From Escherichia phage W143, in the sequence record MZ189262.1: 64,000 bases of DNA. One strand, written 5' to 3'. Positions 6,753-37,738 of this stretch are shown here, one piece after another; position 1 is the first letter of the stretch; every line of letters begins with the position of its first letter. The notes beneath the pieces are model-generated. The model had not been told where the DNA came from and did no database searches. It worked only from the letters and a program-made list of their open reading frames with translations. Position numbers and translations under genes: made by a program.

Positions 6753-7223
6753 TTAATCATGTTTCCACACCCCATCGGTATTTGACCAAAGTCGCTGATT
6801 ATCTGAACCTCGCCACAGCTTTTTGGTCGGAAGATTTTTCTCATACTTCCCATCAATAATAACATCAACATATTTAAGCATTTCTAGTTGTTTAATATCT
6901 TCAAACTTGTACCCTGTCCACAACCAAATGCTTTTATTCGGATAAAGATTTTTTACCGTTTGAACAATGCAATGAACAGCATCTCGGTTATCAGGATAAA
7001 GAGGGTCTCCTCCAGTTATAGTTAATCCTTCTATATAATCATTATTCAAACATTCAATTAATTGTTCTAGTGTTTCACCAGTGAATGGAACGCCATTTCT
7101 AGCATTCCATGTTGATTTATTATAACACCCTTCACATTTATGCAAACACCCCGTAACGAAAAGAACGACCCTGCATCCAGGGCCATTCACAAAATCGCAG
7201 GGATAAAATCTATCGTAATTCAT
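6753..7223 (-). CDS. nrdG: Anaerobic ribonucleotide reductase activating protein (radical SAM)
   Basis: 156 aa; cysteine cluster CLHKCEGC; 4-nt overlap with the nrdD stop. Confidence 0.85.
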   Translation of the reverse strand: MNYDRFYPCDFVNGPGCRVVLFVTGCLHKCEGCYNKSTWNARNGVPFTGETLEQLIECLNNDYIEGLTITGGDPLYPDNRDAVHCIVQTVKNLYPNKSIWLWTGYKFEDIKQLEMLKYVDVIIDGKYEKNLPTKKLWRGSDNQRLWSNTDGVWKHD

Positions 7224-9037
7224 TGGTGTTTAATCCTATGCATGATTTCTTTATTTTTGCCAAGATTAAATCCGCGCTCGTTCGGATTTCCCAAATAGCC
7301 ACATGTTCTTCTTATTGTGTTCATCTTTTTAGGATCAGTTTCTCCACAAATAGAACAAACAAATCCGTTTTCAGTAGGAGTCATTTCATGGGTACTTCCA
7401 CATGTAAAACATTTATCTACTGGCATATTAACACCAAAATAATCTAAATGTTGTGCAGCATAATCCCATACAGCCTCAAGACCTTTTAGGTTATTTTTCA
7501 TATCAGGAAGTTCAACATAAGAAATGTGACCACCTGTCGCAATGAAATGATACGGAGCTTCGCGAGAAATCTTTTCAAACGGAGTAATATTTTCTTCTAC
7601 TGAAACGTGGAAACTATTAGTGTACCATCCTTTATCAGTAACATCTTTTACACTTCCATATTTTTCTGTATCAAGTTTACAGAAGCGATAACAAAGGTTT
7701 TCAGCAGGAGTAGAATACAAGCTAAAAGCAAAACCGGTTCTTTCAGTCCACTGCTTAAGACGAGCATTCATTTTAGTCAAAATTTCCTGTCCAATATCAC
7801 GTCCGACAAGAATATTCAATTCGTGAATACCAATGTATCCTAAAGACACCGAACTTCTACCGTTTTTAAATAACTCAATTATATCATCATCAGGTTTAAG
7901 ACGAACCCCAAATGCACCTTCTTGGTAAAGAATAGGAGCAACAGTAGCTTTAACTCCTTTTAAGGAACTAATTCTACACATCAAAGCTTCAAAACACAAA
8001 TCCATTCGCTCATTGAATAATTCAGTAAATTTCTGTTCATTGAACTGTGTTCCAATATAAGAATCTAGCGCAATACGAGGAAGATTCAGTGTTACAACGC
8101 CAAGATTATTACGTCCATCAAGAATTTCATTACCAGTCGAATCTTTCCATACACTTAAGAAACTGCGGCAACCCATTGGAGAAACAGGAATAGATGAACC
8201 TGTGATAGCTTTATTATTCTTAACTGAAATAATATCAGGATACATTCTTTTACTTGCACACTCTAGGGCAAGTTGCTTAATATCATAGTTCGGATCGTCT
8301 TTATAAAGATTGACACCCTCTTCAACGAACATAACAAGTTTAGGGAAAATAGGAGTTATCCCGTCACGACCGAGACCTTTAATGCGATTTTTCAGAATTG
8401 CTTTCTGAATCATTCGTTCAGTCCAGTCAGTTCCCGTACCAAATGTAATTGTTACAAAAGGCGTTTGTCCGTTTGAGCTAAAGAGAGTATTTACTTCGTA
8501 TTCATAAGCTTGGAATGCATCGTATACGTCTTTTTCTGTTTTAGATTGGGCATAATTCAATGCATCAGCGATTTGCCATTTTTCTGCGTCCTCAATATGT
8601 TTTGCGTAGGTGCGTTTAACATAAGGAGAAAGGACTTTATCTACATTCGCAAAAGTCGTTCCGCCATATTGATGGGAAGCAACCTGCGCAGTAATTTGTG
8701 CCATAATTGCAGTAGCAACGCCGATTGATTTAGGAGTTTCAATCTGCGCATTACCGAGCTTAAATCCGTTCTCAAGCATTCCTTTTAAATCTACTAAACA
8801 GCAATTAGTAAATGGAAGAGCGGGGGAATAATCAATATCATGGAAATGGATAATTCCGCTTTCATGCGCTTTCATAATAAAAGACGGGACCATATTTTTG
8901 GCAATGTGTTTAGACACAATACCAGCCATAAGGTCCCGTTGAGTTGGAAAAACACGAGAATCTTTATTAGCATTCTCGTTTAAAAGGTCTTTATTAGTTT
9001 TATGAATCAATCCTTCAATTTCTTTTTCAATTGTCAT
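7220..9037 (-). CDS. nrdD: Anaerobic ribonucleoside-triphosphate reductase, uninterrupted
   Basis: 605-aa continuous ORF; C-terminal zinc ribbon CFTCGSTHE...CSICG and glycyl-radical motif RRTCGYLG. Confidence 0.92.
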   Translation of the reverse strand: MTIEKEIEGLIHKTNKDLLNENANKDSRVFPTQRDLMAGIVSKHIAKNMVPSFIMKAHESGIIHFHDIDYSPALPFTNCCLVDLKGMLENGFKLGNAQIETPKSIGVATAIMAQITAQVASHQYGGTTFANVDKVLSPYVKRTYAKHIEDAEKWQIADALNYAQSKTEKDVYDAFQAYEYEVNTLFSSNGQTPFVTITFGTGTDWTERMIQKAILKNRIKGLGRDGITPIFPKLVMFVEEGVNLYKDDPNYDIKQLALECASKRMYPDIISVKNNKAITGSSIPVSPMGCRSFLSVWKDSTGNEILDGRNNLGVVTLNLPRIALDSYIGTQFNEQKFTELFNERMDLCFEALMCRISSLKGVKATVAPILYQEGAFGVRLKPDDDIIELFKNGRSSVSLGYIGIHELNILVGRDIGQEILTKMNARLKQWTERTGFAFSLYSTPAENLCYRFCKLDTEKYGSVKDVTDKGWYTNSFHVSVEENITPFEKISREAPYHFIATGGHISYVELPDMKNNLKGLEAVWDYAAQHLDYFGVNMPVDKCFTCGSTHEMTPTENGFVCSICGETDPKKMNTIRRTCGYLGNPNERGFNLGKNKEIMHRIKHQ

Positions 9038-27213: not shown

Positions 27214-27492
27214 TTATTCTTTAAATCTAATCAATTTATTCATAGACTTTGTAACTTCTGCACGAACCTCATGTAGGTTTTTGAGCTGTTCAAGACGCTG
27301 CTCATAGTAAGCAATTTCATCTTCTTCGAGACAGTCCTGTGAATCTTCTTTAAGATAACGTGCGTAGTCCTGGAAAGCTTTACGGACTACTTCTTGGAAG
27401 TCATCAAGGCTTTGAATTTTCTTAGGAGCGACAGATACACGACGAGGGGCAGTATAATACTCATAACCAAACCCTGCGCTTAATTGGGCCAT
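27214..27492 (-). CDS. Hypothetical protein (92 aa)
   Basis: Track start is GTG 27534; ATG 27492 with SD GAGGAA and TAATG overlap with upstream stop. Confidence 0.45.
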
Positions 27493-27758
27493 TAATATTT
27501 TTCCTCTGGTTGGAACACAGCACGACAAGCCCACATACTGGCTTCTTTGAGTTTCGTTTTAGCAATAGTTAACTGATCAAGACTTTCAGCATAATTCTTC
27601 GCGAATTCACAGTCTTCACAATTATCTAGTGCTTCCCAGAATTCATCATATAAAGCATCAAAGATAAGTCCTAAACGAACTTCAGCATCTTTGATAGCAT
27701 TCACTTTACCGATTTTCTCTTCAGTATGTGGCTTATAACCCTTAATATCTTCAATCAT
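27492..27758 (-). CDS. Hypothetical acidic protein (88 aa)
   Basis: ORF. Confidence 0.45.
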
Positions 27759-27972
27759 ATTTTACTTCCTCACCAGTACCTAAATCATATTCAACTAAAC
27801 GAATAGGTTCATGAATGCCATATCCCTGAACAGAAATTTCTGTCGTAGGATAAATTCCATCAATATCACCCATATTCCATGCTTCATTAAATTGCTGTTC
27901 GCCTGAATTACTAAACCATTCGGCGAAAGCATTTAGCACATCTTCAGAACCTTCAATAATTATCTTTGCCAT
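27751..27972 (-). CDS. Hypothetical protein (73 aa)
   Basis: ORF. Confidence 0.45.
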   Translation of the reverse strand: MAKIIIEGSEDVLNAFAEWFSNSGEQQFNEAWNMGDIDGIYPTTEISVQGYGIHEPIRLVEYDLGTGEEVKYD

Positions 27973-28346
27973 TACAGACTCTCGGTAAAGGTACGAGCGA
28001 TAACGTCGCGCTGCTGTTCCGGAGTCAGAGAGTTAAAGCGAACTGCATAACCGGATACACGGATGGTCAGCTGCGGATATTTTTCCGGATGCTTAACTGC
28101 ATCTTCCAGAGTTTCACGACGCAGAACGTTTACGTTCAGGTGTTGACCACCTTCAATTTTAACTGTAGGTTGTGTTTCAATTTCAATTTCACGGGCATGT
28201 AAACCGTAGAAAATTTCTGGGTCTACAAAAGAGTCCTCTTTAAAGGTTTTAGAGACAATAATTCGTGCTTGAATACCGTCTTCAAAATAAATAGTACCTT
28301 TATGTGTGCCTTCAAGAATTTGATATGCTTTCATATAACCTCTCAA
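27972..28346 (-). CDS. Autonomous glycyl-radical cofactor, GrcA/YfiD-like (T4 Y06I-like)
   Basis: C-terminal glycyl-radical motif [25 protein letters not shown]; coding DNA for the C-terminal half is visibly GC-rich relative to its surroundings. Confidence 0.85.
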
Positions 28347-28672
28347 TTAGAAAATAAATTTATCCAAGATTGCTCTTTAATTAAAAATGGCTCAGAATCA
28401 TATGCCATTAAACTTTGGGTAATTAGTCCTTTAAAAGGCCCATCAATAAATTCCATGGTAAAATATGGAATTTTATTCATTAATCTTGCATTAGGAGCAG
28501 TGCACAAAACTCTGCATCCTTTGAATACGCCTTTTTGTAATTTGTATTGCTTAGGATAAAATTCGCTCAAGACGTTGTTATTTGCCAAAATTTCAAAATG
28601 ATTCACCAATTTATTTTTAATAGTTTTTGGCGAAAAATAAAGATATTCGAAAAGTTGCGTGTCTGTCATCAT
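28343..28672 (-). CDS. Hypothetical protein (109 aa)
   Basis: ATG 28672 forms an ATGA overlap with the upstream stop. Confidence 0.45.
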
Positions 28673-29208
28673 TGCATTCCGATTACGAAAAACTGCGGAC
28701 GAGTAATACCACCAATGCAACAATTACTATTGCAGCAGTGTTGTACAGTGTCAATATGGACGCTATAAATCTTATCCATATCAGGAGATTTAACAGGCTC
28801 ATCGATTATATACAAAATCCGCGAAAGCGATAAACCTCTGAACTTGCTTCCTTTATTACCGATAAAACTACGGACAGAATCGGTAAATAAACGAAAACGT
28901 ATATCATCATTAGAATAACGCGAAAATTCCTTTTTAATGTTATTTGCAGAAATTTTAGCGTAAGCTGAAGTATTAGAAAGAACAATAACTGTTCCACCGT
29001 CATACAACCAATTAGCGGCAAAATTAGTTACTGCAGTTGATTTACCGGATTGACGTCCACCATCTAGTCGAAGTGTGCAATACTGCTTAAGTAAGTCTTC
29101 AAATGGCGGGATATATTCGTTTTTACAAATTTCTTCTACTCTAGCATCAGAATGGTGTGTAAAAGCATTCATCAGGGATAGATAAGGACCAGTTAAAAAT
29201 GTTCTCAT
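28669..29208 (-). CDS. Small P-loop NTPase-like protein (179 aa)
   Basis: Walker A GGRQSGKST and Walker B-like ILYIIDE; ATG 29208 follows GAGAGAATAAA. Confidence 0.5.
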   Translation of the reverse strand: MRTFLTGPYLSLMNAFTHHSDARVEEICKNEYIPPFEDLLKQYCTLRLDGGRQSGKSTAVTNFAANWLYDGGTVIVLSNTSAYAKISANNIKKEFSRYSNDDIRFRLFTDSVRSFIGNKGSKFRGLSLSRILYIIDEPVKSPDMDKIYSVHIDTVQHCCNSNCCIGGITRPQFFVIGMQ

Positions 29209-36382: not shown

Positions 36383-36459
36383 TGGTCGAGGCAGAAGGAT
36401 TCTAACCTTCAACCAACGGATTAGAAATCCGTTGCTCTATACAATTGAGCTATGCCCCG
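36383..36459 (-). tRNA. tRNA-Arg (anticodon UCU)
   Basis: Hand-folded cloverleaf; anticodon loop TTTCTAA; CCA encoded; unusual T-loop TTAGAAT. Confidence 0.7.
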
Positions 36460-36462
36460 TAA

Positions 36463-37128
36463 TTAAAATTTCATTTTTCGACCTTTAAACCATCCTTCTG
36501 GAATTGGGTCAGTTTTCTTAATACGTTTAGAAACTTTTTCATCTAATGAATGAATCCACATCATACCGAATTGGGAATTCTTTTCACCTTGTTGGTGTTT
36601 ATTTCTGGCGTGAGATTCTTTCATTTTATTAATAGTTTCAGGAGTATGATGCTTATTTAAAAATCTGCTATTATTTAAAAATTTTTCCCTGTATTCAGGA
36701 GTTGACCACAAGCGTTTAAATATATTTGAACCATGTTTACGATATTTTTCTTGAAGTAAAATATCATTTTTAAAACGTGACTTAAACGATTTAGCTCCTT
36801 TTAAACTAGCGTCTTTCTTCTGATTTAGCATCTCAGGAATATTTAAATGGTCCCATCCACCTTCACCGCCAAGTTTTAAATTATACACATCTGGTCTATT
36901 TAAAAACTCTTCTGTGACAATATTTTTCTCGGCTTCAAGCATAGATTCTTTATCATCAAAATACTCTAATATTTCTTTAGAGAAATTTTCTATACCATAC
37001 TTGTCTTGGGCTCTTTTTAATAATTTACCAGAACCCATATATCCATCATCTAAATTTTCGGTAGAATGAGCGCCTATGTAGATTTTATTATTAATTTTAT
37101 TTGTTATTTTATAAATGTAATGGAACAT
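36463..37128 (-). CDS. segB: GIY-YIG homing endonuclease SegB-like, embedded in the tRNA cluster
   Basis: 221 aa; motifs YIYKITN...KIYIGAHS, DDGYMGSG, GGEGG; lies between tRNA-Ile and tRNA-Arg. Confidence 0.8.
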   Translation of the reverse strand: MFHYIYKITNKINNKIYIGAHSTENLDDGYMGSGKLLKRAQDKYGIENFSKEILEYFDDKESMLEAEKNIVTEEFLNRPDVYNLKLGGEGGWDHLNIPEMLNQKKDASLKGAKSFKSRFKNDILLQEKYRKHGSNIFKRLWSTPEYREKFLNNSRFLNKHHTPETINKMKESHARNKHQQGEKNSQFGMMWIHSLDEKVSKRIKKTDPIPEGWFKGRKMKF

Positions 37129-37169
37129 AAATATCTCCTATTTCTAAGAGTATTTATGTTCTCAAAATA

Positions 37170-37241
37170 TGGCCCTGGGTGGAATTGAACCACCATCTGG
37201 CGATTATGAGTCGCTTGCTTGAACCTTCCAGCTACAGGGCC
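37170..37241 (-). tRNA. tRNA-Ile (anticodon CAU, T4-type) or tRNA-Met
   Basis: Perfect acceptor stem GGCCCTG/CAGGGCC; anticodon loop CTCATAA; T-arm GGTGG-TTCAATT-CCACC. Confidence 0.75.
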
Positions 37242-37242
37242 T

Positions 37243-37318
37243 TGGTGCTGATTGACGGAATCGAACCGCCGACGTCCTCATTACAAGTGAGGTGCTCTAC
37301 CTACTGAGCTAAATCAGC
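37243..37318 (-). tRNA. tRNA-Thr (anticodon UGU)
   Basis: Anticodon loop CTTGTAA; CCA encoded. Confidence 0.8.
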
Positions 37319-37325
37319 GAAATTA

Positions 37326-37412
37326 CGGAGGCGATAGGATTTGAACCTATGAGTCGCCGGAGCGACTGCCGGTTTTCAAGACCGGTGCATTAAACCACTC
37401 TGCCACGCCTCC
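37326..37412 (-). tRNA. tRNA-Ser (anticodon UGA), long variable arm
   Basis: Anticodon loop CTTGAAA; 87 nt; 2-nt spacer to tRNA-Pro. Confidence 0.8.
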
Positions 37413-37414
37413 AG

Positions 37415-37488
37415 TCTCCGCGGCAGGATTTGAACCTGCGACATTCTGCTCCCAAAGCAGACGCTCTACCAAACTGAGCTACACGGAG
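37415..37488 (-). tRNA. tRNA-Pro (anticodon UGG)
   Basis: Anticodon loop TTTGGGA; T-arm GCAGG-TTCAAAT-CCTGC. Confidence 0.8.
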
Positions 37489-37498
37489 TAAATTAAAT

Positions 37499-37572
<74 letters not shown>

Positions 37573-37577
37573 AAATT

Positions 37578-37664
37578 TGGTGCGAGAAGTGGGACTCGAA
37601 CCCACAAGGAAATCATTCCGCAGCATTTTAAGTGCTGTGCCTTTACCAATTTGACCATTCTCGC
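37578..37664 (-). tRNA. tRNA-Leu (anticodon UAA), long variable arm
   Basis: Anticodon loop CTTAAAA; CCA encoded. Confidence 0.8.
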
Positions 37665-37665
37665 G

Positions 37666-37738
37666 CTGGGAATAAAGGACTCGAACCTTTGCATCTAGCA
37701 GTCAAAGTGCTATGCCTTACCAACTTGGCTAATTCCCA
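37666..37738 (-). tRNA. tRNA-Gln (anticodon UUG)
   Basis: Anticodon loop CTTTGAC; 1-nt spacer to tRNA-Leu. Confidence 0.8.

Follow-up and report, generated by a model that had tools for sequence, protein, structure and literature searches.

How does a strictly lytic phage, which destroys the DNA of its host and in which exchange with that DNA is therefore unexpected, come to carry inside one of its own genes a stretch of sequence that is letter for letter that of the host? The question is raised by vs.6, a small gene on the minus strand of a 64,000-nucleotide stretch of the genome of Escherichia phage W143 (MZ189262.1), a Tequatrovirus; this whole stretch is called the window below. The product of vs.6 resembles GrcA (YfiD), the glycyl-radical spare part of Escherichia coli. 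We propose that the C-terminal module of vs.6 has very probably been replaced repeatedly by host grcA DNA, through gene conversion bounded by the edges of homology, in a gene that serves as a spare part for pyruvate formate-lyase (PFL).

The first line of evidence is the identity of the two genes. Residues 61-120 of Vs.6 are 100% identical to residues 68-127 of E. coli GrcA, without a single difference, and the first 60 residues are weakly similar. At the DNA level, the longest substring common to vs.6 and E. coli grcA is 172 nt long (28156..27985 of the window, L001 601-772). Codons 61-116 are identical in DNA to E. coli grcA and are followed by three synonymous differences in codons 117-119, just before the stop codon; most of codons 1-60 differ from those of grcA. 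By blastn, the last 185 nt of vs.6 were found at 98.4% identity in all 5,426 complete E. coli genomes, and the first 99 nt of the tract are the exact GTA-CGT haplotype of 604 of them. When 25 kb of the window (15500-40499) were compared with these 5,426 genomes by megablast, the tract was the only match (10,840 places; 10,838 for the tract alone), and no other E. coli-like DNA was detected in that interval. The genes pflB and tdcE were rejected as donors, being only about 79% identical to the tract.

The composition of the gene changes along with the identity. The tract has a GC content of 0.494, where the mean of the window is 0.352 (z = 3.1), and belongs to the top 0.5% of 172-nt windows. 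GC at third codon positions (GC3) is 0.429 in the tract against 0.183 in the 5′ half of vs.6, the overall GC of which is 0.33. The tract GC3 equals the maximum of 1,213 in-frame 56-codon windows taken from the long open reading frames (ORFs) of the window, and agrees with that of E. coli grcA (0.433), which has the same codon usage along its full length. Accordingly, codon choice shifts from ATT, TTA and CCA in the 5′ half to CTG, CCG, ATC and CGT in the tract. The initial annotation of this locus, made from the sequence alone, had described a C-terminal part of roughly 60 residues matching E. coli GrcA, a GC-rich 3′ half with enterobacterial codons and a phage-like N-terminal half; the match is 60 of 60 residues, and the remaining two points hold as well, the N-terminal half being AT-rich and weakly similar to GrcA. 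That annotation had made its proposal depend on elevated nucleotide identity to host grcA and on a quantitative compositional shift: the identity is 172 of 172 nt, and both GC and GC3 are shifted. Its further claim, a recent capture of a host gene fragment, stands as far as host derivation and youth are concerned, but not as a single capture.

A compositional break within the gene (GC3 0.18/0.43), with one segment near-identical to a host gene (the 172-nt match), is the first mark of the kind of recombination described for cyanophage psbA. The origin of the tract in E. coli grcA is confirmed as real and not due to chance. Direction from host to phage is strongly favoured by the sequence comparison, because the composition of the tract is that of the host, and because E. 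coli grcA has one composition throughout and lies in the conserved ung-grcA context; individual alleles may have been transferred from phage to host.

Because E. coli grcA is itself polymorphic within the tract, its variants could be compared with those of the phages. We used 11 Escherichia alleles (eight of E. coli picked blind among the "spread" rows, the top blastn match as reference, K-12 MG1655 and one Escherichia sp.) and 18 phage tracts (the window, T4, three Mosigvirus isolates, six IMG/VR contigs and seven metagenome contigs), with variant codons numbered by the phage gene. The Escherichia alleles contain six synonymous variants relative to the window allele, namely CAG64, AAT67, GTT68, CGC73, TCA94 and TCT94. 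All six recur among the 19 synonymous variants of the phage tracts, out of 127 possible single-base changes (hypergeometric P = 5e-6). The variants are also found in the same combinations: the GTT+CGC haplotype (K-12, strain 203740 and others) in L096 and in O157 typing phage 6, GTT+TCA (strain XH987) in L099 and L185, and AAT+GTT (strain N39) in L182, and the derived GTA allele is found in the window and in L186. Haplotypes were then counted with 99-nt queries covering codons 61-93, the band of at least 99% identity holding exact matches only. Among the E. coli genomes, GTT-CGT was present in 2,967, GTT-CGC in 1,256 and GTA-CGT in 604 of 5,426; among the ~640 phage records with an E. coli-type tract, the corresponding numbers were 322, 49 and 27. 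The three commonest E. coli haplotypes are thus the three commonest among those queried in phages, and in the same rank order. Many phage-only variants of the tract are changes to A or T, and the R73H change of T4 is another variant seen only in phages.

Comparison of the genera Tequatrovirus and Mosigvirus showed how differently the two halves of the gene have diverged. The 5′ halves differ between the genera at 17-24 of 180 nt (mean identity 89.2%), whereas in the tract the closest pairs differ at 0-1 of 170 nt and the mean identity over all pairs is 98.2%. Among codons for the same amino acid, 21.7% differ in the 5′ half and 5.3% in the tract, the latter value being close to the level found within genera (4.5-5.0%); at the rate of the 5′ half, 56 codons would be free of synonymous differences with a probability of ~1e-6. 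Since tract differences lie at the within-genus level despite a diverged 5′ half, the tract has been homogenised since the two genera split. The two ends of the tract were also compared. The 5′ junction, AAA ATT/GAA GGT, is common to all E. coli-infecting phages examined. In contrast, the 3′ ends vary: the window reads ACC GAG AGT CTG, T4 ACT GAA AGT TTG, L099 ACT GAG AGC TTG and Mosigvirus ACT GAG AGT CTA, against ACT GAA AGC CTG in E. coli grcA, so that E. coli and phage states are mixed differently in each of the four. The ending GAG AGT CTA is the ancestral phage ending, because it is common to Mosigvirus, Slopekvirus and Pseudotevenvirus. Such patchy 3′ ends fit conversion tracts that stopped at different points just before the stop codon.

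A corresponding pattern was found in phages of another host genus. In Klebsiella T4-like phages the GC content of the tract is 0.54-0.57 against 0.35 upstream. With K. pneumoniae grcA alleles obtained through the protein collection, the tract of Jiaodavirus KPV15 (L121) matched K. pneumoniae grcA without a mismatch over 140 nt and was 97.6% identical to it overall, against 86% identity to that of E. coli. When the K. pneumoniae tract was used as query, 106 phage records were 95-99% identical to it, nearly all of them Klebsiella phages among the matches listed, and ~526 were 80-90% identical, mostly E. coli, Shigella and Yersinia phages; the E. coli tract as query gave the converse pattern. The phages with a Klebsiella tract also have the Klebsiella-type residues L77 and E81. 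Taken together, these sequence comparisons indicate that replacement by DNA of the resident host has occurred independently in at least two host genera. More than one exchange and clustering by host, as seen in the shared variants, the cross-genus homogenisation and the E. coli- and K. pneumoniae-type tracts, are the second mark of psbA-type recombination. As a separate observation, the 5′ half of vs.6 in KPV15 has lost one base when compared with phage KP179 (TTTTT to TTTT, at ~1320-1325 of L121); this would be either a frameshift, making the gene a pseudogene, or a homopolymer sequencing error.

The alternative that survives best is a single recent capture, by one recombination with E. coli grcA before Tequatrovirus and Mosigvirus diverged, or a single event spread through recombination between phages, all later variation being ordinary mutation. 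It would account for the 5′ junction being the same in all the E. coli-infecting phages and for the many phage-only variants to A or T, which the AT bias of the phage predicts. We nevertheless consider it unlikely. Ordinary mutation would have had to hit all six Escherichia variants and to reproduce the rank order of the E. coli haplotypes, and a single ancestral event does not explain why the tract is no more diverged between the genera than within them when divergence in the neighbouring 5′ half is 3-4 times higher. The shared junction is not evidence for a single event, because it lies where nucleotide homology with grcA starts. In addition, the K. pneumoniae-type replacement in Klebsiella phages is independent.

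Several observations weigh against recurrent conversion. The identical 5′ junction of all E. coli phages also fits one origin, as said. The hypergeometric test assumes equal mutability of sites, and stratification by transitions and transversions still gave 6e-5 (first five variants); the haplotype counts are approximate, given end-trimmed alignments and possible duplication of records between GenBank and RefSeq. Some tracts do not correspond to the host that would be expected. The tract of KP179 is about 92% identical to K. pneumoniae grcA, and neither it nor Slopekvirus (~83%) has been recently converted; between KP179 and KPV15 the tract is 93% identical and the flanks ~96%, which speaks neither for nor against conversion. 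Yersinia phage PST (H122) bears the exact E. coli GTA allele, off its isolation host, and Salmonella phage PSE-D1 (H206) bears a K. pneumoniae-type tract (97.6%). That the tracts of PST and PSE-D1 disagree with their isolation hosts shows updating to be slow relative to laboratory host switches, and suggests that the tract mirrors the natural host of the lineage rather than the laboratory host. Moreover, degradation of host DNA by T4 and the presence of hydroxymethylcytosine (hmC) in its DNA should reduce such recombinants, and recombination between phages can shuffle alleles, so that the number of independent host-to-phage events is uncertain, with a minimum of ~4-6. Finally, the case for conversion is one drawn from comparison of sequences.

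The gene vs.6 is a mosaic: codons 61-116 are E. coli grcA DNA, and the 60 codons before them, like the four after them, are old phage sequence. In marker rescue and plasmid-phage recombination of T4, replicating phage genomes take up cytosine-containing DNA from inside the cell that shares a short homology with them, by means of UvsX/UvsY and gp46/47; the minimal homology is tens of bp. By the same route, fragments of host DNA present early in infection could recombine with replicating phage DNA. Exchange would be confined to the C-terminal module, which is under strong constraint, because only there does the phage gene have nucleotide similarity to the host gene. A first, homeologous conversion (at ~80-85% identity, as in Slopekvirus) would be rare, but later ones would be easy, because the first leaves perfect homology with the host; the module would then be resynchronised repeatedly with the grcA allele or species of the current host. 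Matching the host may be adaptive, through compatibility with host PflA and PflB, or it may be neutral.

With respect to function, the Pfam family Gly_radical (PF01228) covers residues 60-101 of Vs.6 at 2.2e-18, above the cut-off. In a PDB search, residues 22-120 aligned to residues 28-127 of GrcA (solution structure 6owr, 4.6e-42), and residues 58-120 were collinear with PflB 697-759 (4.8e-26). The motif RVSGYAVRF, which the initial annotation had pointed out, is present, with its radical glycine aligned with G734 of PflB, and these matches agree with the earlier naming of the gene as a GrcA/YfiD-like glycyl-radical spare part. As a stand-alone protein of 120 aa (~14 kDa) with a C-terminal Gly_radical half, Vs.6 has the domain make-up of GrcA/YfiD (TIGR04365, IPR011140). 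Its score against the TIGR04365 equivalog model is 154.6 bits, below the cut-off of 170 (E. coli GrcA scores 233.9), because the N-terminal half has diverged. Judged in this way, Vs.6 appears to be a functional analogue and homologue of GrcA, and not a strict equivalog by the NCBIfam rule.

In PMC8683613, T4 Y06I and E. coli YfiD are given as the two spare-part proteins with experimental validation (citing Wagner 2001); both receive their radical from the PFL-activating enzyme and restore PFL that oxygen has cut at G734, and the sole substrate shown there experimentally for Y06I is host PFL. By analogy with Y06I, the Vs.6 protein of the window would repair oxygen-broken host PFL. The host activase PflA would install the radical on Gly95 of Vs.6 in the infected cell, and the module would dock into PFL whose C-terminal glycyl-radical peptide oxygen had removed; repaired PFL would regain production of acetyl-CoA and ATP while host gene expression is off. 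A phage copy would be useful since shut-off of host transcription, as in T4, would leave host grcA not inducible. The initial annotation had also linked the gene to the anaerobic ribonucleotide reductase of the phage itself, NrdD (7220-9037). Like PFL, NrdD bears a glycyl radical and is cut by oxygen at that glycine, it is encoded in the same window, and in the jumbo phage fHe-Yen9-04 the vs.6 homologue lies two genes downstream of nrdD. However, Vs.6 has no significant similarity to the NrdD of the window (best BLASTP E = 2.6, in an aligned region that is not the radical loop), and T4 NrdD structures are absent from the PDB matches, among which the C-terminus of PflB aligns along the whole module. 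Given also that the module is host grcA DNA and that the published activity of Y06I, as far as PMC8683613 relates it, is on PFL, we hold NrdD to be a very improbable target, and that part of the annotation was not retained.

Host-identical tracts are found in a gene that is much older than they are. vs.6 is present in most of the T4-like genera sampled, and the two-part architecture was seen in Mosigvirus, Jiaodavirus, Slopekvirus, Pseudotevenvirus, Karamvirus and Krischvirus, in Biquartavirus and Schizotequatrovirus, in Aeromonas and Vibrio T4-like phages, and also in T5-like phages and a jumbo Yersinia phage. Some 750 Straboviridae records contain vs.6, and a 2006 comparison of six T4-like genomes (PMC1524935) already counted it among the genes conserved in every one. 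In most of the lineages named above, the C-terminal module has almost the same amino acid sequence. Nevertheless, no host-identical tract was found in the homologues of T5-like, jumbo Yersinia, Aeromonas, Vibrio, Krischvirus and Karamvirus phages, where identity is 63-86% and exact runs reach at most 54 nt, and in most of the lineages the DNA of the module reaches only 63-88% identity with any bacterial grcA among 81. Protein conservation is therefore insufficient to explain the DNA identity of the tract, since lineages with the same protein share only this much DNA with any grcA. All in all, these comparisons indicate that an ancestral phage gene underlies the host-identical tract, which is an overlay and not one captured fragment.

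The same observations dispose of convergence, in which strong selection, both purifying and on codon usage, would have led phage and host to identical codons in a module expressed at a high level, without any transfer: the 60-aa module is indeed an almost invariant protein across very distant phages and bacteria, but leB, Matisse and T5-like phages encode an identical or near-identical module with DNA only 72-85% identical to any grcA, the grcA genes of E. coli and Salmonella differ from each other at numerous synonymous positions of the tract, and 172 identical bases out of 172 together with shared polymorphisms are beyond its reach, so that we consider it effectively refuted. We give just as little credence to an artefact of host reads or chimeric assembly, which one apparently chimeric metagenome contig would illustrate, because the tract is in the T4 reference and in ~640 independent phage records, always in frame between phage-specific flanks and with phage-only variants such as T4 R73H. 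The contig in question, L181 (OCHD01000040.1), has the size of a phage genome and runs at ~7742-8700 from a Mosigvirus-like 5′ half of vs.6 through the tract into the 3′ flank of grcA and an E. coli-like eamB (94%, 786 nt). We rejected it as an independent capture with another 3′ junction, as it is probably an assembly chimera that arose at the repeat which phage and host have in common, and it was left out of all counts. Several of the IMG/VR contigs fetched with Vs.6 (L165-L175) contain a full-length pflB-type C-terminus (…MNREMLLDAME.PEKY…TQSM) at ~50% GC; these "viral" contigs are probably bacterial or prophage-flanking DNA and not phage spare-part genes.

The limits of the gene and of its parts are listed in the table. 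The ORF list of the window gives a minus-strand ORF at 27972-28346, the bounds adopted in the initial annotation. Its end was kept and its start was moved to the ATG at 28334, which is almost certainly the functional start and gives the same 120-aa product as the T4 annotation. The TTG at 28346 was discarded because it sits inside the GAGG ribosome-binding site and because the ATG is where the gene starts in the T4 annotation and in the PHROG profile.

Features of vs.6 in the window
Feature	Position	Strand	Basis
vs.6 (Y06I) coding sequence, 120 aa plus stop; phage autonomous glycyl-radical cofactor	27972..28334	-	ORF; T4, PHROG, Pfam and 6owr matches
Phage-type 5′ half, codons 1-60, AT-rich	28155..28334	-	Composition; weak GrcA similarity; Mosigvirus comparison
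Host-identical, putative conversion tract, 172 nt, codons 61-116 plus flanking bases; RVSGYAVRF module with radical Gly95	27985..28156	-	Longest common substring
Phage-type 3′ end C GAG AGT CTG TAA, three synonymous differences from E. coli	27972..27984	-	Codon table
GAGG, Shine-Dalgarno sequence of vs.6; overlaps the stop codon of vs.7	28339..28342	-	Read from sequence

The surroundings of the gene are those of T4. A 1.3-kb stretch (27500-28800) is 99.2% identical to Escherichia phage Pu-Krd-SF4, and the gene order vs.8-vs.7-vs.6-vs.5-vs.4-vs.3-regB is as in T4, with all genes co-oriented and stops and starts overlapping or abutting. Over its full length (residues 1-120) the vs.6 product matches phrog_1209 at 5.4e-63, and the flanking genes match phrog_2049 (vs.7) and phrog_1986 (vs.5), so that the position of vs.6 between vs.7 and vs.5 is conserved with T4. 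The Vs.6 protein has 98.3% amino acid identity to T4 Vs.6 and 100% to that of many other Tequatrovirus isolates; the statement that T4 carries such a gene, Y06I, was correct, and the window gene is its orthologue. The vs.6 stop codon overlaps the vs.5 ATG (TAATG), the vs.5 ORF beginning at 27972, and the phage-specific codons GAG AGT (GAGAG) at the end of vs.6 may form a putative ribosome-binding site for vs.5. A scan for promoters and terminators of vs.6 gave no signal above chance. The vs.5 orthologue (27751-27972, minus strand) encodes 73 aa in the window against 58 aa annotated in T4. The vs.4 orthologue (27492-27758, minus strand), two genes downstream of vs.6, is annotated as "anti-CBASS protein 2" (Acb2) in close phages. 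In Krischvirus JSE (L094) vs.6 is followed immediately by a gene for a homing endonuclease (1056-1586); none adjoins vs.6 in the window. The other GC peaks of the window, including the highest, come from a cluster of eight tRNA genes (Arg, Met, Thr, Ser, Pro, Gly, Leu, Gln; 36383-37738, minus strand), and this cluster gave no megablast match to E. coli.

The vs.6 gene and its biochemical role were already known; its evolutionary behaviour is, to judge from the literature that can be searched, new. No description of the mosaic at the nucleotide level was found in full-text literature on Y06I/YfiD, vs.6 and phage grcA; older papers may contain an earlier mention. On balance we favour the view that a strictly lytic phage that degrades host DNA keeps one gene module in concerted evolution with a host gene by continual conversion. 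If so, the tract would be a natural recorder of the last host, that is, of the E. coli lineage or enterobacterial genus recently used, and a ready assay for gene flow from hosts to T4-like phages. It would offer a clean, bounded and directly measurable natural case of host-to-phage conversion in the best-studied phage system. There are practical consequences as well. grcA was chosen as a conserved quantitative PCR marker for Straboviridae in a 2026 paper (PMC12845203); its conserved half does not differ from host grcA, so that primers placed outside the 5′ half could also amplify host DNA. A repeat shared by phage and host can seed chimeric contigs in metagenome assemblies, as L181 illustrates, and tools that predict hosts from nucleotide matches will score the tract strongly.

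Finally, we compared vs.6 of the window with known systems. T4 Vs.6 (Y06I) has the same length and gene order and differs from the window protein at two residues (P54 and H73 in T4, T54 and R73 in the window); its gene has the GTT68 allele, whereas the window has the E. coli GTA68 allele. E. coli GrcA (YfiD; TIGR04365, 6owr) shares with Vs.6 the fold family, the radical glycine motif, the C-terminal 60 residues and the 172 nt of DNA, and the C-terminal module of Vs.6 is identical in sequence to the solved protein. In contrast to GrcA, Vs.6 is 7 residues shorter and is encoded in a phage operon, not at the ung-grcA-eamB locus. In laboratory marker rescue of T4 the donor is a plasmid with cloned T4 DNA; for vs.6 the donor would be the chromosome of a wild host. 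The closest precedent for the process, judged by analogy, is recombination of the cyanophage genes psbA and psbD, for which intragenic recombination between host and phage was reportedly described by Zeidner in 2005. In these genes such recombination was found through patchy GC and recombination tests (Sullivan 2006, PMC1484495). Like vs.6, psbA is a host metabolic gene in a T4-like phage, with patchy GC, exchange of segments and phage genes that cluster by host (PMC1484495). Unlike psbA, vs.6 lies in hmC-containing, host-DNA-degrading enterobacterial phages; its exchanged segment is sharply bounded at ~170 nt, 100% identical to living host alleles and shares trans-specific polymorphisms with the host population, and the rest of the gene is without nucleotide homology to the host.

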